Shown: positions 3,141 to 54,801 of the stretch, piece after piece
Layout: every line of letters starts with the position of its first letter
Numbering within the stretch: the first letter of the stretch is position 1
Assembly: GCF_016903815.1 (NCBI RefSeq)
Contig: NZ_CP069973.1
Source of the DNA: Escherichia coli
GTDB lineage: Bacteria; Pseudomonadota; Gammaproteobacteria; Enterobacterales; Enterobacteriaceae
Reading direction: 5' to 3' (one strand)
DNA: 64,000 nucleotides
Position numbers and translations under genes: made by a program
Notes under the pieces: generated by a model
Told to the model about the DNA's origin: nothing
Seen by the model: only the letters and a program-made list of their open reading frames with translations
Databases searched by the model: none

Positions 3141-4655
3141 TCAGGCAACTGCCTGGCTGACTTTAGGCATCGCAAGGCTCAGTGCCTGACGCTCATCTGC
3201 CTGCTCGTGTAACAATTCACCGGCGATTTCACCTTCGCGCATCACCACAATCCGGTCGGCAACGCCGAGGACTTCAGGTAAGTCGCTGGAGGCAAACAGC
3301 ACCGCCACACCCTGCGCCGCCAGCGCATAAATTACGTTATATATTTCGTGCTTAGCGCCAACATCAATGCCGCGCGTAGGTTCATCCAGCAAAATGACCT
3401 TCATCTCTTCCGATAACCAGCGGCCCAGAATGGCTTTTTGCTGATTTCCGCCTGAGAGATTCATGATCAGTTGCTCAGCGCCCGGCGTTTTGATGTTAAG
3501 CGAACGAATGTGGTGATCGGCATTGTTTTCTTCCCAACCGTTGTTGATTACACAACCGCCGAGCACATGTTTACGTCTGGCACTGATGTTGATATTGTCG
3601 CGAACGGAGTGCACAGGAATAATGCCTTCGGCTTTGCGATCTTCCGGGCAGAGCATCATGCCTGCGGCAATGGCGTGGCTCGGTTTACGAATATCGATCG
3701 GCTGTTGGTCGATATAAACCTGACCGGCGGTAATTTGCGTACCGCCAAACATGCCTTTCATTAATTCGCTACGCCCTGCCCCGACCAGACCAAACAGACC
3801 GACAATTTCTCCACTGCGAACCGCCAGACTTATTGGCGTACGCACGCCTGGTGCTTTCACAGCATCAAGACGCAGGCGCTCCTCGCCATAACTACGCGGT
3901 TGCCAGCCGTAGATATCACCGATGTCGCGCCCGACCATCGCCTGCACCAGGGCGTCGTGGTCAACCTGCTGCATATCAGTAAAGGTTTTGACATAACGCC
4001 CATCTTTAAAGACGGTGATGGCATCGCTGAGGGCAAATATTTCTTCCATACGGTGAGAAACGTATAAGATCACCCGCCCCTCTTTTCGCAGTTCACGAAT
4101 AACGCGGAAAAGATTGTCGATTTCACGGGCAGAGAGGGAGCTGGTTGGCTCATCAAAGGCGATAATTTTGGCGTTACGCGCCAGCGCTTTGGCGATTTCA
4201 ACCATCTGCCACTGACCAATGGAGAGATATTTCAGCGGCGTGTCCGGGTCAATATCCATACCAAGATGTTTAAGTTGTAAACCCGCCTCATAATTCAGCA
4301 ATGAGCGATTCACAATGCCGCCTTTATGCGGCAGCTGGCCGAGATAGATGTTTTCCGCGACGGTCATTTCCGGCACGAGATGCAGTTCCTGGTAAATAAT
4401 CGCCACACCCGCGTTAAGTGCTGCGGTCGTGTCGGAAAAGGACATTTCCTGCCCATTAATCACTACAGAACCCGTGGTTGGCGCATAGTTGCCGCTGAGG
4501 ATTTTTAAGAGAGTTGATTTTCCTGCGCCATTTTCACCCATCAACGCATGAACCTGACCGGCATAGCAATCAAAACTAATATCCGTCAGCGCCTTAACGC
4601 CGGGAAACGTTTTACCGATGCCGCGAAATGAGAGATACGGGGTAGACTGTTGCAT
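3141..4655 (-). CDS. araG: L-arabinose ABC transporter ATP-binding protein AraG
   Basis: ORF 3141-4700(-); AraG begins [19 protein letters not shown]; two Walker A motifs ([16 protein letters not shown]). Confidence 0.92.
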
Positions 4656-4724: not shown

Positions 4725-5714
4725 TTACTTACCGCCTAAACCTTTTTTCTCCAGTTCTTCTTTAAAGTTGTCACGCGTGATCAATACCACGTCGGTAACT
4801 TCGGTAAATTTTGGCGGTTCAACGTCTTTTGCTACCCAGTTGTAAAGCATTTCGCTGGATTTATAGCCATGTACGTCCGGGCTTGGCAGCAGGGAACCGT
4901 AGAAGCCGGTTGCCTGTGCCTTAGACAGTTCGCTCACCGCATCCACACCGTTAATACCGATACCGATGATATCGGCCGCTTTAAAGCCCTGACCTTCCGT
5001 CGCGCGTACGCCGCCAAGTACGGTGCTGTCGTTCATACCGACGATCAGCCAATGTTTAACTTCCGGATGTTGAACCAGCATTGAGTTGGCAGCGTCAAAT
5101 GCCCCCGGGATGTCGTTAGATTTGGTAGGTACCTGATAAATTTGTTTTTCCGGGAATCCTGCAGCTTTCAGCGCATCCATAGACCCCGTAGTACGGCGAC
5201 GAGCCGTATCCAGTTCGTTGGCGGTAATCGCCATCACCGCGCTTTCTTTGACATCCCAGCCACGTTTCTGCATCTCTTTATACAGTTCCTGGCCCTGACG
5301 TTCGCCAATTTTGGTCGCTGCCATCATCACCAGCGGAACGGTATCCATTGGCTTGCCTTTGGCGTTAACAAACTGGTCATCCACGGCAATGACTTTCATA
5401 TCGTAGCCACGCGCTTTCGCCACGATGGCAGAGCCGAGTTTCGGGTCCGGAGTACAAATAACGAAACCTTTTGCGCCACTGGCAGCCAGGCTATCGATAG
5501 CGTTCAATGTTTTTTCGCCATCCGGCACGGCAATCTTAATAACTTCAAACCCTAAATCCTTCCCAGCTTTATCGGCAAACTTCCATTCGGTCTGGAACCA
5601 CGGCTCTTCCGGTTGCTTCACCAGGAAACCGAGCTTCAGGTTCTCCGCCATAGCGGATTGTGACATAACGGCTGCCAGACCAATGGCTGCCAGGGCTTTA
5701 GTAAATTTGTGCAT
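4725..5714 (-). CDS. araF: L-arabinose periplasmic binding protein AraF
   Basis: ORF 4725-5765(-); AraF begins MHKFTKALAAIGLAAVMSQSAMA (signal peptide). Confidence 0.92.
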   Translation of the reverse strand: MHKFTKALAAIGLAAVMSQSAMAENLKLGFLVKQPEEPWFQTEWKFADKAGKDLGFEVIKIAVPDGEKTLNAIDSLAASGAKGFVICTPDPKLGSAIVAKARGYDMKVIAVDDQFVNAKGKPMDTVPLVMMAATKIGERQGQELYKEMQKRGWDVKESAVMAITANELDTARRRTTGSMDALKAAGFPEKQIYQVPTKSNDIPGAFDAANSMLVQHPEVKHWLIVGMNDSTVLGGVRATEGQGFKAADIIGIGINGVDAVSELSKAQATGFYGSLLPSPDVHGYKSSEMLYNWVAKDVEPPKFTEVTDVVLITRDNFKEELEKKGLGGK

Positions 5715-6509
5715 GGTTCTCTCCAGCTTTAGTGTCGTTTTGTGTAGGGCAAAAACGAATGACATTCGTTAAATTAATCGGAAAACAAAGCATTACCTTT
5801 TAACTAAAAGATAAGTGACTGTGTTGACATAGTTTTAGCGAGAAATTAATTCTCCATAGGAGAGCAATATCACATCGCAGAATTACAGTGAGAACGTGCA
5901 TAAATTTAGCGGGAAAAGACATAAGGAAAAGCCAATTTGTCTGAGAAATTGTCTAGTGCACAGCAGATTAATCCATAAGATTAGCCTGGAAATCCTTGTT
6001 GTCTTTGGTACCCAGCGGGATGTCTTTTTTTTAACCAGTCAATAGGCCACATTACCTGGCGTTGAGTTTTTGAAAGGGTGTAATAACCGCAACTCAAAGA
6101 TGTGGAAAAAGCGCGTCATTCATTTCGCCATTAATTATCACCGTGCTCATTAATTAACAGAACACGTATACTGAGAGCCATACCGCAAAAATGAAAAAAC
6201 GTTTTAAAAAATCATTGCTTCATCATGAATTCAAATTCACCGATTAATATCAACAAGATACAAAAAGCACTATCATTAAAATTCATTGCAGTTACATTGA
6301 TTTCATCAATGAAATGTAAAAATATATAAACTTGATGATTTAAGCATTTTCTTATACCCATTCAGACGTTATTCTTATTTCAGATCATCGTCAGAATTGA
6401 CTCCACGATCACATTTCGGACCGGCAGAAAGGAATTATTCTGCAAACAGTAATTATGGTGTTTTGATTTATCTTGCACCTCTCCACTTCTGGATATAAGG
6501 ATATTAGGT

Positions 6510-7013
6510 ATGGCAACCGCTGGAATGCTTCTCAAACTCAACTCTCAAATGAACCGCGAGTTTTACGCATCCAATCTCTACCTTCACCTGAGTAACTGGT
6601 GTTCTGAACAGAGTCTGAACGGCACCGCCACTTTCCTTCGCGCCCAGGCACAGAGTAACGTGACCCAAATGATGCGCATGTTTAACTTTATGAAGAGTGT
6701 CGGCGCTACCCCCATCGTTAAAGCCATTGATGTTCCCGGTGAAAAACTGAACTCTCTGGAAGAACTGTTCCAAAAAACGATGGAAGAATACGAGCAACGT
6801 TCAAGCACGCTGGCGCAGTTAGCCGATGAAGCGAAAGAACTGAATGATGATTCAACCGTCAATTTCCTGCGCGATCTGGAAAAAGAACAGCAGCATGATG
6901 GCCTGTTGCTGCAAACCATTCTTGATGAAGTGCGCAGTGCGAAACTTGCGGGTATGTGCCCTGTGCAGACCGACCAACATGTTCTGAATGTCGTGTCGCA
7001 TCAGCTGCATTGA
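6510..7013 (+). CDS. ftnB: Ferritin-like protein FtnB
   Basis: ORF 167 aa [31 protein letters not shown], ferritin fold. Confidence 0.9.
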
Positions 7014-7095: not shown

Positions 7096-7344
7096 ATGGG
7101 ATTCGCCCTGTGGGGTAAACTTGAGTTCAATCAGCGCGATGGCTTTTTGGATTGCCCGCATGGTGACCGGGTCTGCGGCGGCGGGATGGTTAGTAAAGTC
7201 GATATTCTTCAGCTGGCTGGACATTTTTTCACGAACTTCAACGGGCGCGATTACATCGAGAACATCCAGAATTTGTTTGATAACCAACTGGCAAGCAACC
7301 ACATCAGAAACCAGTTCCTGATCGGCATTCAGCGGCTGGGACAT
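7093..7344 (-). CDS. yecJ: DUF2766 protein YecJ
   Basis: ORF 83 aa [30 protein letters not shown]. Confidence 0.85.
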
Positions 7345-7430
7345 CGTAAACTCCTGATAGCATTTTGAAAGCCGTTATAGTAGCGGCTTCACATCTTCAG
7401 CGATAGTCACATCCACCGTCATCAGGACAC

Positions 7431-7458
7431 AAAAAAACCTGCCGGAGCAGGTTTTTTG
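7431..7458 (-). terminator. Rho-independent terminator downstream of azuC
   Basis: A-run, hairpin acctgccggagcaggt, T-run; immediately 3' of the azuC stop on the minus strand. Confidence 0.6.
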
Positions 7459-7545
7459 TTATCGGAACATATTGCCTGGCGGTACGTCTTTGAACGTCTT
7501 GCAATAGTTGTTGAACATACTTTTCAGGATTTTGCGCAGTTTCAT
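7459..7545 (-). CDS. azuC: 28-aa small protein AzuC
   Basis: Reverse-strand translation MKLRKILKSMFNNYCKTFKDVPPGNMFR-stop; below the 60-aa cutoff of the ORF track. Confidence 0.85.
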   Translation of the reverse strand: MKLRKILKSMFNNYCKTFKDVPPGNMFR

Positions 7546-7806
7546 CGCGGCACTCCGACCATTTGTTATACAGGTGTTATTGTCTTTGCGCTTATAATAT
7601 GACAACCATCACAAAAATCAATCTTTATGTGATGCAAATCACATAAATACCCCTTTAATGTTATAAAAATGATAATCAAAAAGCAGCCCCCCCTTTCTGA
7701 CACATACAGATGGCGAGAAATAGCGCCTGCCAGGCGTCTTTTCCGGCCATTGTCGCAGCGCTGTAACGCGTAAAATACTGCTTTCTTTTACTCTTCTGGC
7801 TGGACC

Positions 7807-8130
7807 ATGAGACTTCTGATTCTGACTCTTTCATTAATAACGCTGGTGGGGTGCACAGTTACTCGCCAGGCTCATGTGGGCGAAGTTGACGCGGCAACAG
7901 GTATTGTTCGGTTGGTTTATGATCAGGCTTTTTTGCAGCATGCCCGTACCGATCGTTATGTCAGTCGCGGGATCGCCGATCGCGCATGCCAGCAGGAAGG
8001 CTATACCCACGCGATCCCCTTTGGTCAGCCAGTAGGCAACTGTAGCCTTTTTGCGGGTTCCTTATGTTTGAATACGGAATTCACTTTGTCATATCAGTGC
8101 CATCATTCCGCCTTCCCTGTCTTTCTCTAA
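7807..8130 (+). CDS. yecR: Lipoprotein YecR
   Basis: ORF 107 aa with lipobox LVGC. Confidence 0.85.
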   Translation: MRLLILTLSLITLVGCTVTRQAHVGEVDAATGIVRLVYDQAFLQHARTDRYVSRGIADRACQQEGYTHAIPFGQPVGNCSLFAGSLCLNTEFTLSYQCHHSAFPVFL

Positions 8131-8300
8131 ATATTTTAATCAGCGAGGGGATCTTCGCTGATTAAAGAAATAGCGGTAATGCGTTTTATTCCCATTCGTA
8201 TTTTTAATAAATGAAGTTTATATTTTACCTTTTGCAAATAATAAAATAACAAATTATAGTGACGCCACAGCAACAAATATAACCTTTGTGGAGCACTATC

Positions 8301-8798
8301 ATGCTGAAACCAGAAATGATTGAAAAACTTAATGAGCAGATGAACCTGGAACTGTACTCTTCACTGCTTTATCAGCAAATGAGCGCCTGGTGCAGCTATC
8401 ATACCTTCGAAGGTGCTGCCGCGTTCCTGCGCCGTCACGCCCAGGAAGAGATGACGCATATGCAGCGTCTGTTTGATTATCTGACTGATACCGGCAATTT
8501 ACCGCGTATTAATACCGTTGAATCTCCGTTTGCTGAATATTCCTCACTTGATGAATTATTCCAGGAAACCTATAAACACGAACAATTAATCACCCAGAAA
8601 ATTAACGAACTGGCTCATGCTGCAATGACCAATCAGGACTACCCAACATTTAATTTCCTGCAATGGTATGTTTCTGAGCAGCATGAAGAAGAGAAACTGT
8701 TCAAATCGATTATTGATAAATTAAGTCTGGCAGGCAAAAGCGGCGAAGGTTTGTATTTTATCGACAAAGAACTCTCTACCCTCGACACACAAAACTAA
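8301..8798 (+). CDS. ftnA: Ferritin FtnA
   Basis: ORF 8286-8798; FtnA begins [31 protein letters not shown]. Confidence 0.92.
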
Positions 8799-8804
8799 TG
8801 TTCT

Positions 8805-8832
8805 CCGGCGGCAGGTTTACTGCCGCCGTTTC
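8805..8832. terminator. Hairpin terminator between convergent ftnA and yecH
   Basis: ccggcggcag gttt ctgccgccg inverted repeat with flanking T residues. Confidence 0.5.
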
Positions 8833-14280: not shown

Positions 14281-14933
14281 TGACTTGATAATGTCTCCGC
14301 ATTACACAGACCATGGCGAATTGCCAGGTGAGTCAGCTCAACATCGCCATGAATGTTTAGTTTACTGAACATACGATAGCGGTAGCTGTTCACCGTTTTC
14401 GGACTGAGATTGAGCTGTTCTGAGATCTCATTGACCTTCTGGCCCTTGGTGATCATCAGCATAATCTGCAATTCACGTTCAGACAAACTGGCAAATGGGC
14501 TTTCTGTTTTTTCTGGTTCGATCTGGCTTAACGCCATTTGTTGAGCGATGTCAGAAGCAATGTAACGCTGCCCTGAATAGACAGAACGGATCGCACTCAC
14601 GACTTCCTGCGGAGCCGCGCCTTTGCTGAGGTAGCCAGCAGCACCGGCCTGCATGACTTTCGCTGGTAAAGGGTTTTCTGTATGGACGGTAAGCATGATG
14701 ATTTTGACATCAGCTGTGGAACGCGCGATTTTACGCGTCGCCTCAAGACCGCCAATGCCCGGCATACTCATGTCCATTAGCACCACGTCAACGGCATTTG
14801 CCCGGCACCATTTAACGGCGTCTTCACCGCACGATGCCTCACCGACGACTTTTATACCCTTTATATCTTCCAGAATGCGTCGTATCCCTGCGCGCACCAG
14901 TTCGTGGTCATCAACAAGTAGAACGTTGATCAA
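14277..14933 (-). CDS. uvrY: Response regulator UvrY (BarA/UvrY two-component system)
   Basis: ORF 218 aa [26 protein letters not shown], LuxR-type HTH C-terminus; overlaps uvrC start by 4 nt. Confidence 0.95.
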
Positions 14934-15391
14934 AGGAATATCTCCAGAAATAGGGATAACGCTACTGATAGTTAGTCATTCGTATATTAGCGGTTTTTAT
15001 TGCAACTTTGAAACGTTAAAAATGGTGGGTATTCGATTTTTCTCTCGTTTTTGTCAATTCGATTGTCCACAGTTATGGTCACGCCCGTCACCAACGGCTT
15101 CCGGGATCGTTTCACAGTAAGCCCTACGATGAAATGTGACAAAAATTGACTTTATTCAGCAAAAATGAAAATCAGCCCGCTGAATATGTAACATTAATTA
15201 ACCCGAACAATACGGGCAAAAAACATTCATGATAAAAATATTTATTGGTCATTATATTAACGTATTTTATAGCACTGCCGATATCACGCTCAAAAAACAA
15301 CCACTGCTATTTTTAGCAAAGCTTATGGTATACTCCGCCGCCTTAACATTTTTCACCGCAAATTTTCATTGCAACATGACGAGGAAAATAA

Positions 15392-15616
15392 ATGAGTACG
15401 CCTGATTTTTCTACTGCCGAGAATAATCAAGAACTGGCAAATGAAGTCTCCTGCCTGAAAGCGATGCTGACGCTGATGCTGCAGGCGATGGGACAAGCTG
15501 ACGCGGGCCGCGTGATGTTAAAGATGGAAAAACAGCTTGCGCTGATCGAAGACGAAACCCAGGCTGCAGTATTTTCCAAAACGGTTAAGCAAATTAAACA
15601 AGCCTACCGTCAGTAA
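15392..15616 (+). CDS. yecF: DUF2594 protein YecF
   Basis: ORF 74 aa [34 protein letters not shown]. Confidence 0.85.
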
Positions 15617-15682: not shown

Positions 15683-16405
15683 TCAAATTAAGCCAGTAGC
15701 GGCCGCGTAACAGGCCACCTGGGTCTTATTTGGTGCATTGATTTTTTTCTGCATGTTTTTCTGATGGAAATTGACCGTATTCTCAGAGATTGACAAAATC
15801 ATCGCTATCTCTGCTGATGTCTTCCCTTCCGCCGTCCATTTCAGAATTTCTTTTTCGCGCTTGCTGAAATTCATCTCTGGCGTCATCACTATTTCATCAT
15901 TTAAACGCATCAGAGCCATCAGACTTTCTCGCACCAGTAACTGCATTTTTAATTGCAGTTCATCACTAAGAATGGGTATTTCGCGCGTGCTGCAACGGGA
16001 AAAGGACAAAAAGCCCAGCGCCCGATTTGGCAGCATTAAATACTGAGTGACACCGCGGCGTAAACCATGTGCGCGCGCGGCTTCCCATAACGGCTGTGCT
16101 TCGCTGAATAAGTCATCATTCCACATTAAATGGCCCTGACTAAAGTTTTCAGGGTTCAGCACAGGATCAATTGCGAGAAAGTTTTTTGCCTGATAATAAC
16201 TAACCCAAGCCTCAGGGTAATTGGTGTAGAAAGCCACTTTAGGTCGCGTGAATGGTACCGGGTGGCGAACACATAACGAATAGTAATCGTACTCCAGCTG
16301 CTGAGCCTGAAGCTCTATTTCATGGTAGACCTCTTCTGCGGCCTCCATCCTCTGAAAACGCAACAGCATCGTGCGACGCCAGCTGAAAAAATCCGTATCC
16401 TGCAT
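15683..16405 (-). CDS. sdiA: LuxR-family quorum-sensing regulator SdiA
   Basis: ORF 15683-16417(-); SdiA begins MQDTDFFSWRRTMLLRFQRMEAAEEVYHEIELQAQQLEYDYY. Confidence 0.93.
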   Translation of the reverse strand: MQDTDFFSWRRTMLLRFQRMEAAEEVYHEIELQAQQLEYDYYSLCVRHPVPFTRPKVAFYTNYPEAWVSYYQAKNFLAIDPVLNPENFSQGHLMWNDDLFSEAQPLWEAARAHGLRRGVTQYLMLPNRALGFLSFSRCSTREIPILSDELQLKMQLLVRESLMALMRLNDEIVMTPEMNFSKREKEILKWTAEGKTSAEIAMILSISENTVNFHQKNMQKKINAPNKTQVACYAAATGLI

Positions 16406-16634
16406 AGTAAACCGCAACGCCCCTGAGAGTGAGTATCATTTATAATGATAATTCAAACTATCACATAAATAAGATTTATATATAATTTATATTATTCAGG
16501 CAATGAATTACTTTTGCAAGCCATCGCATTCTCTTATGTTATTAATGAGTTATGCTGATTTGTTAAGCACTTTTATTACGCTTGAAATGGCGTCCCGCCC
16601 CGACAGGTGAATCGTCGGGGCTGATTTTTTCTTA

Positions 16635-17387
16635 TTATTGCAGCAGAAACTTCTCGAGGAACTGGCGGGTGCGAGGCTGCTGAGGATCGGCAAATAACGC
16701 TTTTGCGGCCCCCTGCTCGACTATCCGCCCCTGGTCCATAAAGATCGCCCGGTCCGCAACATCCCGGGCAAAGCTCATTTCGTGCGTCACAATCACCATC
16801 GTGCGCTTTTCCTGCGCCAGCTGGCGGATGGTGTTCAGGACTTCGCCCACCAGCTCTGGATCCAGAGCCGACGTTGGCTCGTCAAACAAAATCACCTCAG
16901 GACGCATAGCCAGCGCTCGCGCAATCGCGACACGCTGCTGTTGACCGCCAGACAAACGACGTGGATAGCTGGTTTCTTTACCTGCCAGCCCAACTTTCGC
17001 CAGCAGCTCGCGAGCGCGCGCCGTGGCCTCTTCTTTTGGTTCGCCTTTGACGATCACCGGCCCTTCAATAATGTTTTCCAGCACCGTACGATGCGGAAAC
17101 AAATTAAAGTTCTGGAAGACAAACCCGACGTGCTGACGCAACTGGCGAATCAGCGATTTTTGCTGACTTAATGAACGTGCAGTATCAATGGTGATATCGC
17201 CAACGGTGATGGTTCCCGCTTCCGGTTGTTCCAGCAGATTTATGCTGCGTAGCAACGTGGTTTTGCCGGAACCACTCGGACCGATAATTGCCACCACTTC
17301 GCCAGGCTTCACCTCAAGGTCGATACCGTGCAGCACCGTCTGACCGTGGAATTTTTTCACCAGGTTTTTAACTTCAATGGCACTCAT
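16635..17387 (-). CDS. tcyN: L-cystine ABC transporter ATP-binding protein TcyN (YecC)
   Basis: ORF 250 aa with Walker A GPSGSGKTT and ABC signature LSGGQQQR. Confidence 0.9.
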   Translation of the reverse strand: MSAIEVKNLVKKFHGQTVLHGIDLEVKPGEVVAIIGPSGSGKTTLLRSINLLEQPEAGTITVGDITIDTARSLSQQKSLIRQLRQHVGFVFQNFNLFPHRTVLENIIEGPVIVKGEPKEEATARARELLAKVGLAGKETSYPRRLSGGQQQRVAIARALAMRPEVILFDEPTSALDPELVGEVLNTIRQLAQEKRTMVIVTHEMSFARDVADRAIFMDQGRIVEQGAAKALFADPQQPRTRQFLEKFLLQ

Positions 17388-27848: not shown

Positions 27849-29054
27849 ATGTCATGGCAGCAATTCAAACACGCCTGGTTGATTAAATTCTGGGCGCCCA
27901 TCCCCGCGGTCATCGCGGCGGGTATTCTCTCCACTTACTATTTTGGCATCACTGGCACCTTTTGGGCTGTCACAGGTGAATTTACCCGTTGGGGCGGTCA
28001 GCTCCTGCAGTTGTTCGGCGTCCATGCTGAAGAGTGGGGTTATTTTAAAATTATCCATCTGGAAGGATCGCCATTAACCCGCATCGACGGAATGATGATC
28101 CTCGGTATGTTTGGCGGCTGTTTTGCCGCAGCGCTGTGGGCCAACAATGTCAAACTGCGCATGCCGCGCAGCCGTATCCGCATTATGCAGGCCATCATTG
28201 GCGGTATTATCGCCGGTTTTGGCGCACGTCTGGCAATGGGCTGTAACCTGGCGGCGTTCTTTACCGGAATTCCACAGTTCTCGCTGCACGCCTGGTTCTT
28301 TGCCATCGCCACTGCCATTGGTTCATGGTTTGGCGCGCGCTTTACCCTTCTGCCCATCTTCCGTATTCCCGTGAAAATGCAGAAAGTTTCTGCTGCCTCA
28401 CCGTTGACGCAAAAACCGGATCAGGCGCGGCGTCGTTTTCGTCTCGGGATGCTGGTCTTTTTCGGCCTGCTGGGCTGGGCGCTGCTGACGGCGATGAACC
28501 AGCCCAAACTGGGGCTGGCAATGCTGTTTGGTGTCGGCTTTGGTTTACTGATTGAACGTGCGCAAATCTGCTTTACTTCGGCGTTCCGCGATATGTGGAT
28601 CACCGGACGTACCCATATGGCGAAAGCAATCATTATCGGTATGGCGGTAAGTGCCATCGGGATCTTCAGTTACGTACAGTTAGGCGTTGAACCCAAAATC
28701 ATGTGGGCGGGACCAAACGCGGTAATTGGTGGTTTACTGTTTGGTTTTGGCATCGTGCTGGCAGGCGGCTGCGAAACCGGCTGGATGTACCGCGCGGTAG
28801 AAGGCCAGGTGCACTACTGGTGGGTCGGTCTGGGCAACGTGATCGGCTCAACGATTCTGGCGTACTACTGGGATGATTTCGCTCCGGCGCTGGCCACCGA
28901 CTGGGACAAAATCAACCTGCTGAAAACCTTTGGCCCGATGGGCGGCCTGCTGGTGACATATTTGCTGTTGTTTGCTGCTCTAATGTTGATTATTGGCTGG
29001 GAAAAACGCTTCTTCCGCCGTGCGGCACCGCAGACTGCTAAGGAGATCGCATGA
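27849..29054 (+). CDS. yedE: YedE/YeeE-family inner-membrane transporter (selenium/sulfur-compound related)
   Basis: ORF 401 aa polytopic membrane protein MSWQQFKHAWLIKFWAPIPAVIAAGILSTYYFGITG. Confidence 0.88.
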   Translation: MSWQQFKHAWLIKFWAPIPAVIAAGILSTYYFGITGTFWAVTGEFTRWGGQLLQLFGVHAEEWGYFKIIHLEGSPLTRIDGMMILGMFGGCFAAALWANNVKLRMPRSRIRIMQAIIGGIIAGFGARLAMGCNLAAFFTGIPQFSLHAWFFAIATAIGSWFGARFTLLPIFRIPVKMQKVSAASPLTQKPDQARRRFRLGMLVFFGLLGWALLTAMNQPKLGLAMLFGVGFGLLIERAQICFTSAFRDMWITGRTHMAKAIIIGMAVSAIGIFSYVQLGVEPKIMWAGPNAVIGGLLFGFGIVLAGGCETGWMYRAVEGQVHYWWVGLGNVIGSTILAYYWDDFAPALATDWDKINLLKTFGPMGGLLVTYLLLFAALMLIIGWEKRFFRRAAPQTAKEIA

Positions 29055-29284
29055 AAAATATCGTTCCTGATTACCGTCTTGATATGGTGGGTGAACCCTG
29101 CCCTTATCCGGCAGTCGCAACCCTTGAGGCGATGCCGCAGTTAAAAAAAGGGGAGATCCTGGAAGTGGTGAGCGACTGTCCGCAGTCGATCAATAATATT
29201 CCACTGGATGCGCGTAATCACGGCTATACGGTGCTGGATATTCAGCAAGACGGGCCGACCATTCGTTATTTAATTCAGAAGTAA
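29051..29284 (+). CDS. yedF: TusA-like sulfurtransferase-fold protein YedF
   Basis: ORF 77 aa MKNIVPDYRLDMVGEPCPYPAVATLEAMPQLKKGEILEVVSDCPQS (CPxP motif); start overlaps the yedE stop. Confidence 0.9.
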   Translation: MKNIVPDYRLDMVGEPCPYPAVATLEAMPQLKKGEILEVVSDCPQSINNIPLDARNHGYTVLDIQQDGPTIRYLIQK

Positions 29285-29290
29285 TCCCTC

Positions 29291-29317
29291 ATTCCCGCTG
29301 TGGCCCACAGCGGGAAT
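29291..29317. repeat. Near-perfect 13-bp-arm palindrome between yedF and yedK
   Basis: attcccgctgtgg-c-ccacagcgggaat. Confidence 0.7.
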
Positions 29318-29392
29318 ATCGTTGCCTCTCTATCACATAGATTTAACCCGCCCCCTCTCCTATTCTTTTCAGTGTGACCTCAGGAGGTTTCT

Positions 29393-29819
29393 ATGTGTGG
29401 ACGCTTTGCCCAATCCCAAACGCGTGAAGATTACCTTGCGCTTCTCGCGGAAGATATTGAACGCGATATTCCCTACGATCCCGAACCTATTGGCAGATAC
29501 AACGTCGCGCCGGGAACCAAAGTCCTTCTGCTCAGTGAACGTGATGAACACCTTCATCTGGATCCGGTTTTCTGGGGATATGCTCCCGGATGGTGGGATA
29601 AACCGCCGCTGATTAACGCCCGCGTAGAAACTGCCGCAACCAGTCACATGTTTAAACCGCTCTGGCAACATGGTCGGGCAATCTGTTTTGCCGATGGCTG
29701 GTTTGAGTGGAAAAAAGAAGGCGACAAAAAGCAGCCTTATTTTATCTATCGTGCTGATGGACAAGCTGTTTTTATAGCCGCGATAGGTAGCACACCGTTT
29801 GAGCGTGGTGACGAAGCCG
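29393..29819 (+). pseudogene. yedK: yedK (SRAP / abasic-site-processing protein) truncated after about codon 142
   Basis: ORF 29393-29890 matches YedK MCGRFAQSQTREDYLALLAEDIERDIPYDPEPIGRYNVAPGTK...IGSTPFERGDEA, then diverges into an unrelated 23-codon tail at the IS-remnant junction; full-length YedK is about 222 aa as I recall. Confidence 0.8.
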
Positions 29820-30101
29820 GAAGAAGTTTTTGTAAGCCCGCTCAGGGTCTTTCAGTGACTGTTGCAATGGCTGTGAGGGCGAATCTTTAAGCCATTGCGT
29901 TTCAGTGGCATTTTTCCACTCAACCAACCAGGAAGCCATTTTCCCGTAAGGGATGTATTTATTACCGGCCTCATGATTCTCATTCTGAAGCGCCAGAGCA
30001 CGATTGAAAACGAAACGACATGCGCCTGCGAAGCGCCTCATTTCACGCTCCTGTTGACCACCTGGTCTTAACCGGAATTTGAATGCCTGTAGTCGTTTCA
30101 T
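29820..30101 (-). pseudogene. tnpB: tnpB N-terminal fragment (IS605 OrfB / TnpB-family)
   Basis: Only about 95 N-terminal residues are recognisable; RuvC-like and zinc-finger regions are absent. Confidence 0.7.
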
Positions 30102-30123
30102 GGGCCAAATCATACTTTGGCCT

Positions 30124-30481
30124 ATGAAAAAAGAAACCGATATCCGACGCGGAAGGCATTGTGTTTTCCTGAAGCATGTTCACCTAGTCTTCGTTACTAA
30201 ATACCGACGTCAGATTTTTGACCATGACGCGACAGAAAAACTACGCACTTACTTTTCAAATGTATGTGCTGATTTTGAAGCTGAACGGGTTGAAATGGAT
30301 GGCGGACCAGATCACGTCCATTTGTTAATTAACTATCCTCCCAAACTGGCGATATCCAGTCTGGTAAACAGCCTCAAAGGCGTATCGAGTAGGTTACTGC
30401 GACGAGATCGACCAGATATTGCAGTCAGGTATTACGACAAAGGCGTTTTGTGGAGTCCTGGCTATTTTGTCAGTAGCTGCA
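30124..30481 (+). pseudogene. tnpA: tnpA (IS200-type Y1 transposase), probably C-terminally truncated
   Basis: HUH motif HVHLL and a tyrosine in GYF are present; the C-terminal tail after VSSC is unrelated to the family; truncation is inferred from recalled family sequences. Confidence 0.6.
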
Positions 30482-30804
30482 TCTTAACGTATCAACTAGA
30501 TTTAATAACAACGATATCCGTACCTAACCGGATATCTAATGTCATAAGCATCCCTTTAATTATCCCCTCAACCTCTTGTAACTTTCCCACTCTTGAGCTC
30601 CACATAGTCCAAACGCCGGATGCAAAAAAATCACACGTGCATTTCTGAAATTGTGATGGAGGAAGATAGTATCAATTATATGTGCTTAGAAACGTCCCCG
30701 ATTAGCGCAGAAGTCACCGGATTGTTCAGACTCAAATAGGTTGAGTATGCCGTATTTATTTTCCAAAATAAAAATCGATGCTGTTGCTCCTTCATAAAAT
30801 ACTT

Positions 30805-31602
30805 TTACTCTCTGGACGCTTTTCTTAGCTCTCTTGGTGTTATCTTAAAACGATTATGGAACCTTTCAGTAAAACGAGAAGGACACTTGTAACCATTTTC
30901 CCTGGCAATCTCGCTGATGGGTTTTACTGTCGTTTGTATAGCAGACAACGCATTATTTAACCTCACGTCGTCCAATATACTTTGAAAACTTACTCCCTCG
31001 CTTGCCAGACGGCGATGCAATGTGGAAACAGAAATGTAGAGATATCTCGCTACCTTGTTTGCTGTCCATTTTGTTCCAGGTTCGGATAGCATTAGGTTAT
31101 AACAACGACTTATTAATGATTGTTTACTATCTGATAAAAGTAAACAATTAACATGATGTGCTCCTAATGAAAGTAGAACGCCCATTGCTAAGTGTTCCTG
31201 AATTTGCGTTGAGAAGCCTCGGGAAATAGATGTTTTTAGTTGCTCCCAACAATATATTAACTCGGGGTTCTGAGGTAAGCAGAAACCTGTCGTGTTACGA
31301 ATTTGATCAGTTATCGCATAAAATTTTTGAAACTTTTCAATTAGATCAATGGGATAATAAAGCATTTCTGCAAGATAAAGACCTGCTTCTGGATAATTCG
31401 CAATATAAAATTCATATCCACAGGGAAATAATATTATCTGATTATTATCAACAGTTAGACTATGCGTCTCCCAATTGATAACTTTTTTTCCCTGACGGAT
31501 ACGACATAAAGCTGGCATAAGAGGCTTAACCCTGTGAATCTCATGATGTTTATGCATCCGTATTTCTTCAATCTTTAGGTTAGTCTTATCTTTTGCCAGC
31601 AT
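30805..31602 (-). CDS. ybcM: AraC-family transcriptional regulator (YbcM-like)
   Basis: ORF 265 aa with a C-terminal AraC-type HTH ([40 protein letters not shown]); resembles the YbcM of the K-12 DLP12 prophage as I recall it. Confidence 0.75.
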
Positions 31603-31611
31603 ACTCTTACC

Positions 31612-32163
31612 CTACTTTATCTCATAAACTGGTGTTATCTCAGCGGTTGCAATTTTATTGGCATTAAGCATATAACCAACTAACGCTCCGCTGGAATTAG
31701 AATCCACAGGAATTTTATCAGTTTTTAGAGCCCATACTTTAAACTGGTAATGATGGGGTTTATCTCCTTTGGGAGGACATGCTCCACCAAATCCTGCATA
31801 ACCAAAATCATTTCGGCCTTGAACAGCACCAGTCGGAAGTTTTGTACCATCACGTCTTCCTGCATCAGCGGGCAAATATGTTACAGTTGCTGGAATATTA
31901 GCAACAGTCCAGTGCCACCATCCACTGCCTGTAGGAGCATCTGGATCATACACAGTTACGGCAAAGCTTTTGGTGCCTTCAGGAGCACCAGACCAGGTTA
32001 ATGAGGGCGATGTATTACCACCTTCACACCCAAATCCAGAAAATACATGAGACGTTGTAAGTTGCTCTCCTGTTTTTATTTCATTACTAGTGACCTGAAA
32101 TGCTGCGGCCTGCGCAGAAAATGTTATGAATGCCAATACACTTGAAACGATAAGTTTTTTCAT
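31612..32163 (-). CDS. ybcL: PEBP/UPF0098-family periplasmic protein (YbcL-like)
   Basis: ORF 183 aa with signal peptide MKKLIVSSVLAFITFSAQA and PEBP motifs (DPDAP, GYAGFGGACPPKGDKPHHYQF). Confidence 0.8.
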   Translation of the reverse strand: MKKLIVSSVLAFITFSAQAAAFQVTSNEIKTGEQLTTSHVFSGFGCEGGNTSPSLTWSGAPEGTKSFAVTVYDPDAPTGSGWWHWTVANIPATVTYLPADAGRRDGTKLPTGAVQGRNDFGYAGFGGACPPKGDKPHHYQFKVWALKTDKIPVDSNSSGALVGYMLNANKIATAEITPVYEIK

Positions 32164-32331
32164 AAAAACCTCATTGTTGTGACCTATCGTTATTTTATTT
32201 GATGTGCCTTGATCTCATTATGCATAAAGGCGCAATGATCGCGCAAATGCAATCATAATTATAAAGGTGCCCCGAACATTAGCCATAATATGCACAAATC
32301 AGATTCCTGTTATCTCAAGGATAATTATTTT

Positions 32332-32664
32332 TTAATGCGGTGCACTTCGTGACAACAAGTTAATGACTAACACACCGGCACAAATCAACATCATGCCTAT
32401 GATAGCTGGCAGGTCCAGTCGTTGACCAAAAAATCCCCAGGAAAGCAAACTAATCAGAACGATACCGACGCCTGACCAGATAGCATAAGCAATCCCTGTA
32501 GGTATATAAGCCAGCGTCTGAGCTAATAACCAGAATGATGCACAATAGCAAATAATTGTGCCAACAGAGGGCCATAACCGTGTAAACCCCTCTGAAAACT
32601 TCATTAAGGTTGTACCAATGACCTCTGCAAGTATTGCGCCACCAAGATAAATATAAGGGTTCAT
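32332..32664 (-). CDS. emrE: Small multidrug resistance (SMR) efflux protein EmrE
   Basis: ORF 32332-32844(-); protein from MNPYIYLGGAILAEVIGTTLMKFSEGFTRLWPSVG is 110 aa and near-identical to EmrE, including the conserved Glu14. Confidence 0.88.
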   Translation of the reverse strand: MNPYIYLGGAILAEVIGTTLMKFSEGFTRLWPSVGTIICYCASFWLLAQTLAYIPTGIAYAIWSGVGIVLISLLSWGFFGQRLDLPAIIGMMLICAGVLVINLLSRSAPH

Positions 32665-33007
32665 AGCATATTCTTTCCTGTTCATACTGGAGAGAATTGT
32701 ACTACAGTTTGAACACAACTCACCGTTTTCATCCTGGTGTATGTGTATCCAGGGGGCTCTGGCGTGGCAAGAGATAAAGGCAGGAACAATAATGATCAGA
32801 AGGAACCCCAGGCTAACGAATGAGTTCACTCTTCCTGGGAGCAAAGCGAAGACAAAACATGTTATCGCGTTTACGGATCGTGGATGGCAGAAAACTTTCA
32901 GGATCAGGTATCCATTTTAAACCAGAAATTGAGTGAGTTTGCCCCATCCATGCCCCACGCTGTGGGACCGGATATAATAAACAAGCATAGTCAACAGGTT
33001 ACAAAAC

Positions 33008-33322
33008 CTACACCTGCATGGACATCACTTCCTGATACGCCGCCACCAGCTTATTACGCACCTGAATCCCCATTTGCATAGAAACTGAGGCTTTTTGCAT
33101 ATCGGTCATCACATCGTTTAGCGCCACGCCGGGCTCACCGAGGGTGAATTTTTCTGCCTGCGTGCGGGCGGCTGTTTGTGTATCGCTTATGCGATCGAGC
33201 GCGGCGTGCAGCTGCCCGGCAAAACTAATTGTCGGTTGCGGCAGTGATTCCTGCGCACGCGCACTCATCGCCGTGGTCTGTAACTGGCTGATAACCCCTT
33301 CAATCCCCTGTATCGCTGACAT
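33008..33322 (-). CDS. fliE: Flagellar hook-basal body protein FliE
   Basis: ORF 33008-33352(-); FliE begins [42 protein letters not shown]. Confidence 0.93.
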
Positions 33323-33536
33323 TTTCATCTCCCGGATAATTTCTGGTAGCAAAGCCTACCAGTAAGTCAATAAGACAAAGGCGCTAAATAGCAACAAAAA
33401 AACGGGTTTATTGGCGGATAGAAAAAAACGAAAGCACAAATAATGGGAGCGTCAATTTTTCGAGTTTGCTGACCCGGGAGTGAGTCTTGTTCCACTTTGC
33501 CAATAACGCCGTCCATAATCAGCCACGAGGTGCGCG

Positions 33537-43201: not shown

Positions 43202-43987
43202 ATGATGCAGGTAACAAGCGATCAATGGCTTTCCTGGTTAAGCCTGTACTTCTGGCCGTTACTGCGCGTGCTGGCGCTCATTTCTACCGCACCAATTCTG
43301 AGCGAACGCAGCGTGCCGAAACGGGTAAAACTGGGTCTGGCAATGATGATCACGTTCGCTATTGCCCCATCATTACCTGCCAACGATGTTCCTGTTTTTT
43401 CGTTCTTTGCTCTGTGGCTGGCCGTGCAGCAGATCCTGATCGGCATTGCGCTTGGTTTTACCATGCAATTTGCCTTTGCCGCTGTGCGAACCGCTGGTGA
43501 AATTATCGGTCTGCAAATGGGGCTGTCATTTGCGACGTTTGTCGATCCGGCCAGCCATCTCAATATGCCCGTTTTAGCGCGTATCATGGATATGCTGGCG
43601 TTACTGCTGTTCCTGACATTTAACGGTCATTTATGGTTGATTTCACTGCTGGCCGATACCTTTCACACCCTGCCAATTGGTGGCGAACCGTTGAACAGCA
43701 ATGCGTTTCTGGCACTCACCAAAGCAGGGAGTTTGATTTTCCTTAACGGGCTGATGCTGGCATTACCGCTCATTACTCTGCTGCTGACCCTGAATCTGGC
43801 ATTAGGCTTACTTAATCGTATGGCCCCGCAATTATCCATTTTTGTTATTGGATTTCCATTAACTCTGACTGTCGGTATCTCTTTAATGGCGGCATTAATG
43901 CCGTTAATTGCGCCTTTTTGCGAACATTTATTCAGTGAGATGTTTAATTTGCTGGCTGATATTATTAGTGAATTGCCATTAATATAA
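43202..43987 (+). CDS. fliR: Flagellar export apparatus protein FliR
   Basis: ORF 261 aa [39 protein letters not shown]. Confidence 0.95.
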
Positions 43988-44013
43988 TTCCGTAACGTTT
44001 ATCATGTTATCCT

Positions 44014-44027
44014 AAGGATTATCCGAA
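44014..44027 (+). promoter_or_regulatory. Candidate RcsAB box upstream of rcsA
   Basis: taaggattatccga resembles the RcsAB box consensus TaAGaatatTCctA as I recall it; position upstream of rcsA fits autoregulation. Confidence 0.45.
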
Positions 44028-44276
44028 AAATAATACCTACGAACATCTTCCAGGATACTCCTGCGGCGAAATATTTGTTTTAAGCTCACTCACATATCGC
44101 AACATTTACTTTACTTTAAGACAATTCCAGGCAAATTATACAACACTTTACGGGATAGTAAGTCCGCCTGAAAAATCGCGAGAGTGGCGCATTAGGTGAC
44201 CCATGTTGTTCCGTTTAGTCATGATGAAATATTCAGGTAAGGGGAATTATCGTTACGCATTGAGTGAGGGTATGCC

Positions 44277-44900
44277 ATGTCAACGATTATTATGGATTTA
44301 TGTAGTTACACCCGACTAGGTTTAACCGGGTATCTGTTGAGTAGAGGGGTTAAAAAAAGAGAAATCAACGACATTGAAACCGTTGATGACCTTGCCATAG
44401 CTTGTGATTCACAGCGCCCTTCAGTGGTGTTTATTAATGAGGACTGTTTCATCCACGATGCTTCTAACAGTCAGCGTATCAAGTTCATCATTAATCAACA
44501 TCCCAATACGTTATTTATCGTTTTTATGGCAATTGCCAATGTTCATTTTGATGAATATCTATTGGTCAGAAAAAATTTATTGATCAGTTCTAAATCGATT
44601 AAACCGGAATCTCTCGACGATATCCTTGGCGATATTCTGAAAAAAGAGACAACGATAACCTCGTTTTTAAATATGCCGACGTTATCATTGAGCCGAACCG
44701 AATCGAGTATGTTGCGAATGTGGATGGCAGGTCAGGGAACCATTCAAATCTCTGACCAAATGAATATCAAAGCCAAGACCGTTTCATCGCATAAAGGTAA
44801 TATTAAACGTAAGATCAAAACGCATAATAAACAGGTTATCTACCATGTCGTCCGACTGACGGATAATGTGACTAATGGTATTTTTGTCAACATGCGCTAA
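44277..44900 (+). CDS. rcsA: Capsule synthesis regulator RcsA (LuxR-family)
   Basis: ORF 207 aa [44 protein letters not shown]. Confidence 0.93.
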
Positions 44901-44943
44901 CACATTCTGACTGGTGGTTTCCCACCAGTCAGGCCGAATTAGA

Positions 44944-54730: not shown

Positions 54731-54768
54731 GCAGCCACGTTAATACTCACGACGTGGCTGCGTTTTTT
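54731..54768 (+). terminator. Rho-independent terminator after hchA
   Basis: gcagccacgt...acgtggctgc hairpin followed by tttttt. Confidence 0.65.
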
Positions 54769-54801
54769 CATGGTTGATTTATGGCGTACTGAAGCCCTAT
54801 G

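Follow-up and report, generated by a model that had tools for sequence, protein, structure and literature searches.

A 323-bp segment at positions 30482–30804 of the Escherichia coli chromosomal stretch analyzed here (64,000 nucleotides; the window) separates a broken tnpA gene from the stop codon of ybcM. Both of its edges are true junctions. On the left, IS-derived sequence ends at 30480, a porin relic follows at 30481–30483, and prophage-derived DNA begins at 30484; on the right, the stop codon of ybcM starts at 30805. The limits set by an earlier interpretation made from the letters alone (the sequence-only reading) were therefore well placed. GC content of the segment is 38.1% versus 49.6% for the window, which puts it at the 4.9th percentile of all 323-bp windows. 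The description of this DNA as very AT-rich was right in direction, but the deviation is modest. Since the segment is no poorer in GC than ybcM (37.3%) and resembles the whole island (30484–32740, 39.5%), its AT-richness mirrors that of the foreign island as a whole and is not peculiar to the segment. Other parts of the window with GC of 40% or less over 323 bp lie at 5626–6640, 7343–8822, 14848–15508, 16244–16710, 43699–44920, 54758–57584 and 59034–61927, with a minimum of 29.7% at ~6149; these may be further horizontally acquired islands.

Coding content is negligible. The tnpA frame enters the segment as a 55-codon read-through tail that stops at 30648, and four other ORFs encode 26–39 aa. 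Pfam searches with three of these four, and with the ORF of the Q fragment described below, returned no matches. Two small ORFs that we inspected have start codons or frames that are not conserved in DLP12 of K-12: the start codon position of a 39-aa minus-strand ORF is AAG in both K-12 and phage 82, and an antisense 39-aa ORF runs into a stop after 11 codons in K-12, as judged from the alignment. We thus agree that no credible ORF is present. The features of the region are collected in Table 1.

Table 1. Features in and around the segment, and stretches aligned with DLP12 of K-12 (window coordinates)
Feature	Position	Strand	Evidence or identity
Truncated IS609-like (IS200/IS605 family) tnpA; last ~20 codons and IS end missing	30124–30480	+	
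8-bp microhomology GTAGCTGC	30473–30480	.	Direct reading of window, CFT073 and FORC_082
ATC, 5' relic of nmpC-like porin gene (...GCT GTA GCT GCA TC)	30481–30483	+	Allele comparison
8 bp directly 3' of Q stop	30484–30491	-	Collinear with CFT073 from L004 5001 and with K-12 sequence after the quuD stop
quuD-like Q antiterminator 3' fragment	30492–30587	-	Last 31 codons plus stop (30494–30492)
Hairpin GATATCCG-N8-CGGATATC, then GTTGTTATTA; 8-bp stem	30513–30536	-	Terminator scan, inverted repeat
nin-deletion junction	30587–30588	.	Three-way alignment and sequence reading
Dead ylcH (phage 82 orf33)	30589–30688	-	Alignment to K-12 ylcH and phage 82 orf33
ybcM–ylcH intergenic region, 3' flank of ybcLM operon	30689–30804	-	80% to K-12
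ybcM, AraC-family regulator, intact neighbor	30805–31602	-	ORF list; RefSeq annotation of identical locus; 91.2% to K-12 ybcM
K-12 DLP12 renD tail and emrE	32740–32323	-	91.6%
K-12 DLP12 ybcL, ybcM, spacer, ylcH	32318–30598	-	89.7%
Last 100 bp of K-12 quuD	30588–30490	-	83.2%

A BLAST search of phage genomes matched the segment to 39 phage records and split it in two parts. On the opposite strand, segment positions 107–323 match the start of the phage 82 nin-region record X92588 (78%) and, in many lambdoid phages, DNA upstream of ybcN/ninB (in the 75–80% range). Positions 7–107 match the 3' ends of Q antiterminator genes at 82–84.5%. The segment is not the orphan it had been called, as clear homologues of each half exist in DLP12, phage 82 and further lambdoid phages. 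A look beside ybcM in DLP12-like prophages, which the sequence-only reading had proposed, revealed collinearity with DLP12 of K-12. That reading had also suggested that the DNA might be left over from the donor element which brought in ybcM-ybcL-emrE, and this idea is borne out: the segment follows the K-12 order emrE-ybcL-ybcM-ylcH...quuD-nmpC, barring an internal deletion in the nin region. Two K-12 stretches are missing from the window, namely the ybcK recombinase region and 1.8 kb extending from the start of ybcN to about codon 96 of quuD. In K-12, ybcK (with ylcJ) separates emrE from ybcL (L003 3656–5738); it is absent at window 32318–32323, where the upstream region of ybcL directly follows emrE. 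YbcL of the window differs from K-12 YbcL at residues 3, 8, 60, 88, 99 and 149. The product of ybcL at this locus is a reported UPEC effector that suppresses neutrophil migration (PMC4810123).

We also searched plasmids with the segment, which gave 10 weak or partial matches; one match, to a 393-kb record, was full-length, and this record may plausibly be a piece of chromosome deposited under a plasmid label. Because the E. coli matches lie without exception on chromosomes and all plasmid matches but that one are weak or partial, a plasmid origin was rejected.

Neither ylcH nor the Q gene is intact in the segment. The ylcH remnant carries CTA in place of its ATG, an in-frame TGA at codon 6 and a 1-bp insertion, and has lost its stop at the deletion junction. 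It is 72.8% identical to K-12, compared with 83.5% at third codon positions of ybcM. Alignment of the segment to K-12 and phage 82 showed no intact 33-codon ylcH/orf33 ORF overlapping the start of ybcN. A literature search on ylcH by name yielded nothing relevant, only noise from chemical names. The Q fragment is 83% identical in DNA to the 3' end of K-12 quuD (L003 9242–9342) and 84.5% to Q of phage ev243, and its peptide matches residues 98–127 of QuuD at 20 of 30 positions (67%; pairwise BLASTP, E = 1e-11). Intact QuuD matches Pfam PF06530 over 1–118/118; the ORF of the fragment, too short for this test, gave no Pfam match. The Q piece is a gene fragment, not a gene.

Between these two remnants lies the nin-deletion junction, directly after the position of the ybcN GTG of K-12. 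It joins the end of ylcH and the GTG start of ybcN to Q codon ~96, with loss of the equivalent of DLP12 ybcN-ninE-ybcO-rusA-ylcG plus ~96 codons of quuD (about 1.8 kb). The same junction is found in all 2633 genomes with a match covering at least 80% of the segment. Megablast against complete E. coli genomes showed no undeleted progenitor (intact ylcH-ybcN...Q at >95% identity).

Of 5426 complete E. coli genomes, 2665 (49%) contain the segment, the 2633 just mentioned among them; its placements there are all chromosomal and almost always single-copy. Hence the possibility, raised by the sequence-only reading against itself, that this might be ordinary conserved backbone is half right: the DNA is conserved at this locus in 49% of genomes, but as common accessory DNA rather than core backbone. 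Strain 7/2 is 100% identical over the segment, and its RefSeq gene order is amyA, yedD, yedE, yedF, truncated yedK, TnpB N-terminal fragment, tnpA, ybcM, ybcL, emrE, fliE, fliF.

Several alleles of the locus exist. In CFT073, an intact yedK is followed, in this order, by an nmpC-like porin gene (87% to DLP12 nmpC), the porin–Q intergenic region and the Q fragment, which is the DLP12 arrangement; the segment sequence is present there and no IS is. In FORC_082 and strain a7, a complete but pseudogenised IS609-like element comes after an intact yedK, and codon 14 of the porin gene is joined directly to DNA lying 8 bp beyond the Q stop. The window-type tnpA/Q junction was found in 1106 genomes and the FORC-type junction in 1072. 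The remaining ~455, obtained by subtraction, are CFT073-like or rare variants, with which the junction search is consistent, though it is confounded by matches to DLP12 quuD. The CFT073, FORC_082 and window alleles form a series of clean structural markers at the yedK-fliE locus.

Further rearrangements were seen in individual alleles. FORC_082 and a7 share a 20-bp tandem duplication (AACTAGATTTAATAACAACG x2; L005 4981–5020) in the end of the Q fragment, which is absent from the window. FORC_082 has an IS1A in the spacer before the porin start (L005 3737–4506), with a 9-bp flank overlap (CFT073 3314–3322 on both sides). Strain a7 represents a rare fourth allele (L006 6001–6803), in which the segment is interrupted by an IS1 at the position corresponding to window 30543, and ybcM and some of ybcL are lost.

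K-12 has a different insert (yedL, yedN, intG) at the same site. The comparison suggests that the island and K-12 intG are separate remnants at a single prophage integration site. On the fliE side (window 32741–33078), homology to K-12 begins again at 32861, a point within what K-12 annotates as the intG pseudogene ('cryptic prophage PR-G'). Positions 32741–32860 had no match in the K-12 yedK-fliE stretch (L007) or the DLP12 stretch (L003) that we compared. Likewise, blastn and tblastx of window 32665–33100 against the DLP12 stretch, including most of intD, detected nothing beyond renD and the region upstream of emrE.

The left border could be read at nucleotide resolution by comparison of alleles. 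The truncated tnpA matches Pfam Y1_Tnp (E = 3e-33; residues 14–119, profile positions 2–106 of 121), and it is homologous to the complete IS of FORC_082 only as far as 30480, equivalent to L005 3522 and 60 nt before the tnpA stop of that copy. The octamer GTAGCTGC is shared by tnpA (…CAGTAGCTGCGGAGG…) and the porin start (…GCTGTAGCTGCATCAG…), where it spans codons 10–13. The porin start reads ...GCTGTAGCTGCATCAGTA in CFT073. In FORC_082 and a7, ...GCTGTAGCTGCATC is joined to TTAACGTAT; in the window, it is ...CAGTAGCTGCATC that is joined to TTAACGTAT, or …TTTTGTCAGTAGCTGCATC followed by TTAACGTAT… in longer context. The ATC/TTAACG junction is thus common to the window and FORC_082/a7, and in the window it is preceded by tnpA ending in GTAGCTGC.

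The IS fragment at 29817–30480 shares just 95.2% identity with the IS copy of FORC_082 (L005 2859–3522), versus ~98.5% for the flanks; hence, a FORC-like allele may not be the direct ancestor of the window allele. The divergence might be due to gene conversion involving further copies of IS609, or the insertion might have occurred independently. At window 29393–30113, the SOS-response-associated peptidase gene yedK breaks off at ~29830, where it is joined to the interior of an IS609-like tnpB, of which only the N-terminal 113 codons (HTH_OrfB_IS605 domain) remain. The fusion lies at an imperfect microhomology of ~14 bp (CCGGAAGAAGTTTT versus GCCGAAGGAGTTTT). RefSeq/PGAP annotates the ORF at 30124–30648 (+) as a 174-aa 'IS200/IS605 family transposase', WP_001347174.1. 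This ORF is a chimeric pseudogene, in which truncated TnpA is followed by 55 codons of antisense Q-fragment and junction sequence, and the annotation at this locus should be treated accordingly.

These data make it very probable that the segment is non-coding relic DNA, the scar of successive deletions in a DLP12-like cryptic lambdoid prophage that resides between yedK and fliE in about half of strains. Followed along the minus strand from ybcM, the scar comprises the intergenic region, dead ylcH, the nin junction, the Q tail, 8 bp, the porin relic and the tnpA microhomology. From the junctions, we infer the most economical order of events, in four steps. Deletion of nin and Q sequences, common to all alleles, would have come first. 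Loss of the porin body would have been second, as judged from the junction shared by the window and FORC-type alleles. Then, in the window lineage, a deletion between two copies of GTAGCTGC could have removed the 3' end of tnpA, the IS end and the spacer. A separate deletion would finally have fused yedK to tnpB. Any transcription of the segment is probably passive, with the minus strand forming the 3' untranslated tail of ybcLM mRNA and the plus strand the read-through tail of the tnpA pseudogene.

Divergence of the segment fits the relic interpretation. Identity to K-12 is 73–83%, versus 91–95% for the genes, and identity to CFT073 is 97.75% (7 substitutions in 311 bp), versus 99.5–99.7% for the genes. 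This higher divergence than that of neighboring genes is as expected for unconstrained DNA, though the counts are small, and the contrast is gone in the comparison with FORC_082 (98.4%; genes 97.5–99.1%). We further infer that the segment has no dedicated function, yet several considerations weigh against an interpretation as mere relic. Three allele classes have kept the segment nearly intact despite deletion of several kb on the tnpA/yedK-proximal side; absence of function is not provable by sequence; and the hairpin at 30536–30513 sits where a terminator of ybcLM would be useful. On the relic interpretation, the segment carries little biological weight and is a textbook case of prophage decay by stepwise deletion, its sequence already present, unannotated, in thousands of public genomes.

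The hairpin is the basis for the most serious alternative. ybcL and ybcM form an operon that YbcM autoregulates through a site lying upstream of ybcL (PMC8464067), and the segment is accordingly the 3' flank of this operon. A 3' end is needed somewhere, and the segment may be the termination zone of ybcLM, with the hairpin, followed by GUUGUUAUUA, serving as an intrinsic terminator ~270 nt past the ybcM stop. A terminator scan of 30000–31200 found 2 sites versus 0.6 expected. The hairpin is the sole terminator-like site in the segment and the only such match on the ybcM strand downstream of ybcM, and it folds better than shuffled sequences (-14.9 kcal/mol, z = -4.1). Moreover, the window allele has lost, by deletion, the GC-rich hairpin that ancestrally lay between Q and the porin (GGGGCG-N6-CGCCCC in K-12). 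But just 4 of the stem pairs are G-C, the U-tract is discontinuous (5 U in 8), and nothing resembling a terminator directly follows the ybcM stop. The hairpin also lies in former coding sequence, inside the Q fragment; a similar one, derived from repeated Asp-Ile codons, is found within the intact quuD coding sequence of K-12, where it presumably does not terminate. We consider a terminator role, the other option offered by the sequence-only reading, possible though less likely than not. Such a role would be compatible with relic origin, as the hairpin would then be exapted.

Two other inverted repeats were evaluated. An AT-only repeat just after the ybcM stop (TTTATTTT/AAAATAAA) was rejected as a terminator, with a fold of -3.7 kcal/mol and z = +0.4. 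Upstream of ylcH/orf33, K-12 (L003 ~7300–7345) and phage 82 (L002 2213–2241) have a perfect 10-bp inverted repeat, GTCACCGGAG-N9-CTCCGGTGAC, which the depositors of the phage 82 record marked as a "possible regulator-binding site". Its left arm is replaced in the window, and the predicted fold is weakened from -18.3 kcal/mol (z = -4.4) in K-12 to -8.9 (z = -1.2). The repeat lies at the place expected of a lambda tR2-like terminator or an operator.

The segment is very unlikely to conceal a small gene or small RNA with a function, be it one of the 26–39-aa ORFs, the 174-aa TnpA chimera or an sRNA derived from the 3' UTR. The ORFs do exist, PGAP annotates the chimera, and the segment is stably kept in ~2600 genomes. 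Against this, the three small ORFs tested lack Pfam matches, the start of the 39-aa ORF and the antisense frame are not conserved, ylcH is disrupted three ways, and the match of the TnpA chimera to Y1_Tnp falls 15 positions short of the end of the profile. As for RNA, an Rfam search of 29000–33500 (E ≤ 1) gave nothing in 30482–30804, the fold of the whole segment shows no excess of structure over shuffles (z = +0.65), and no sigma-70-like promoter was found in 30000–31200, versus 3.3 expected by chance. The lone Rfam match in 29000–33500 was to the Yersinia sRNA Ysr206 (32111–32377, minus strand; 18 bits versus a gathering score of 124, E = 0.19); it covers the 5' end of ybcL and the ybcL–emrE spacer and is almost certainly due to chance. 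Similarly improbable, in our estimation, is co-option of the Q-fragment hairpin and dead ylcH as a structured 3' UTR that sets the 3' end of the ybcLM operon or yields an sRNA. If true, it would explain how 320 bp survived three neighboring deletions in ~2600 genomes. Finally, the notion that the segment is the hairpin-bearing end of an insertion sequence, prompted by its abutting tnpA and by the non-coding structured ends of IS200/IS605 elements, can be dismissed with near certainty, as homology to the complete IS copies of FORC_082 and a7 stops at 30480, the complete copy goes on with tnpA codons (GGAGGTGCGCC...) missing from the window, and prophage homology covers all of 30484–30804, including in the IS-free copy of CFT073.

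The scar of a DLP12-like prophage, our preferred interpretation, can be set beside three known systems. Deletions of the lambda nin region, such as nin5, remove a terminator-containing region between P and Q. The deletion at 30587/30588 is alike in that nin genes between the replication/ren side and Q are lost. It differs in that it also destroys Q, in an already defective prophage, and shows no sign of selection for N-independence.

The nin region of phage 82 (X92588: orf33, orf151, orf56, orf96, rus, orf45, Q) is similar to the window over its first 234 bp, which align with 30588–30821 at 79.6% identity and include a putative promoter, the repeat marked by the depositors and orf33. In the window, by contrast, the 10-bp inverted repeat lacks one arm, orf33 is broken, and everything from orf151 onward is missing. 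The phage 82 record gave no match to window 30490–30587; the Q fragment there is of the short quuD type and not detectably the 229-aa Q of phage 82.

DLP12 of K-12 (emrE-ybcK-ybcL-ybcM-ylcH-ybcN-ninE-ybcO-rusA-ylcG-quuD-nmpC) is the third system. The island in the window differs from it in sitting at yedK-fliE rather than at the DLP12 chromosomal site, in lacking ybcK, in the death of ylcH and the loss of ~1.8 kb between ybcN and quuD codon ~96, and in having an IS609-like fragment in place of the porin gene and all beyond. Yet gene order and orientation are as in DLP12. Identity to K-12 is 92% for emrE, 95% for ybcL and 91% for ybcM, and among the non-genic or relic parts it is 80% for the ybcM–ylcH spacer, 73% for ylcH and 83% for the quuD 3' end. 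In the CFT073 allele the correspondence extends further, through the Q–nmpC intergenic region and into the nmpC-like porin gene (87%), just as in DLP12.
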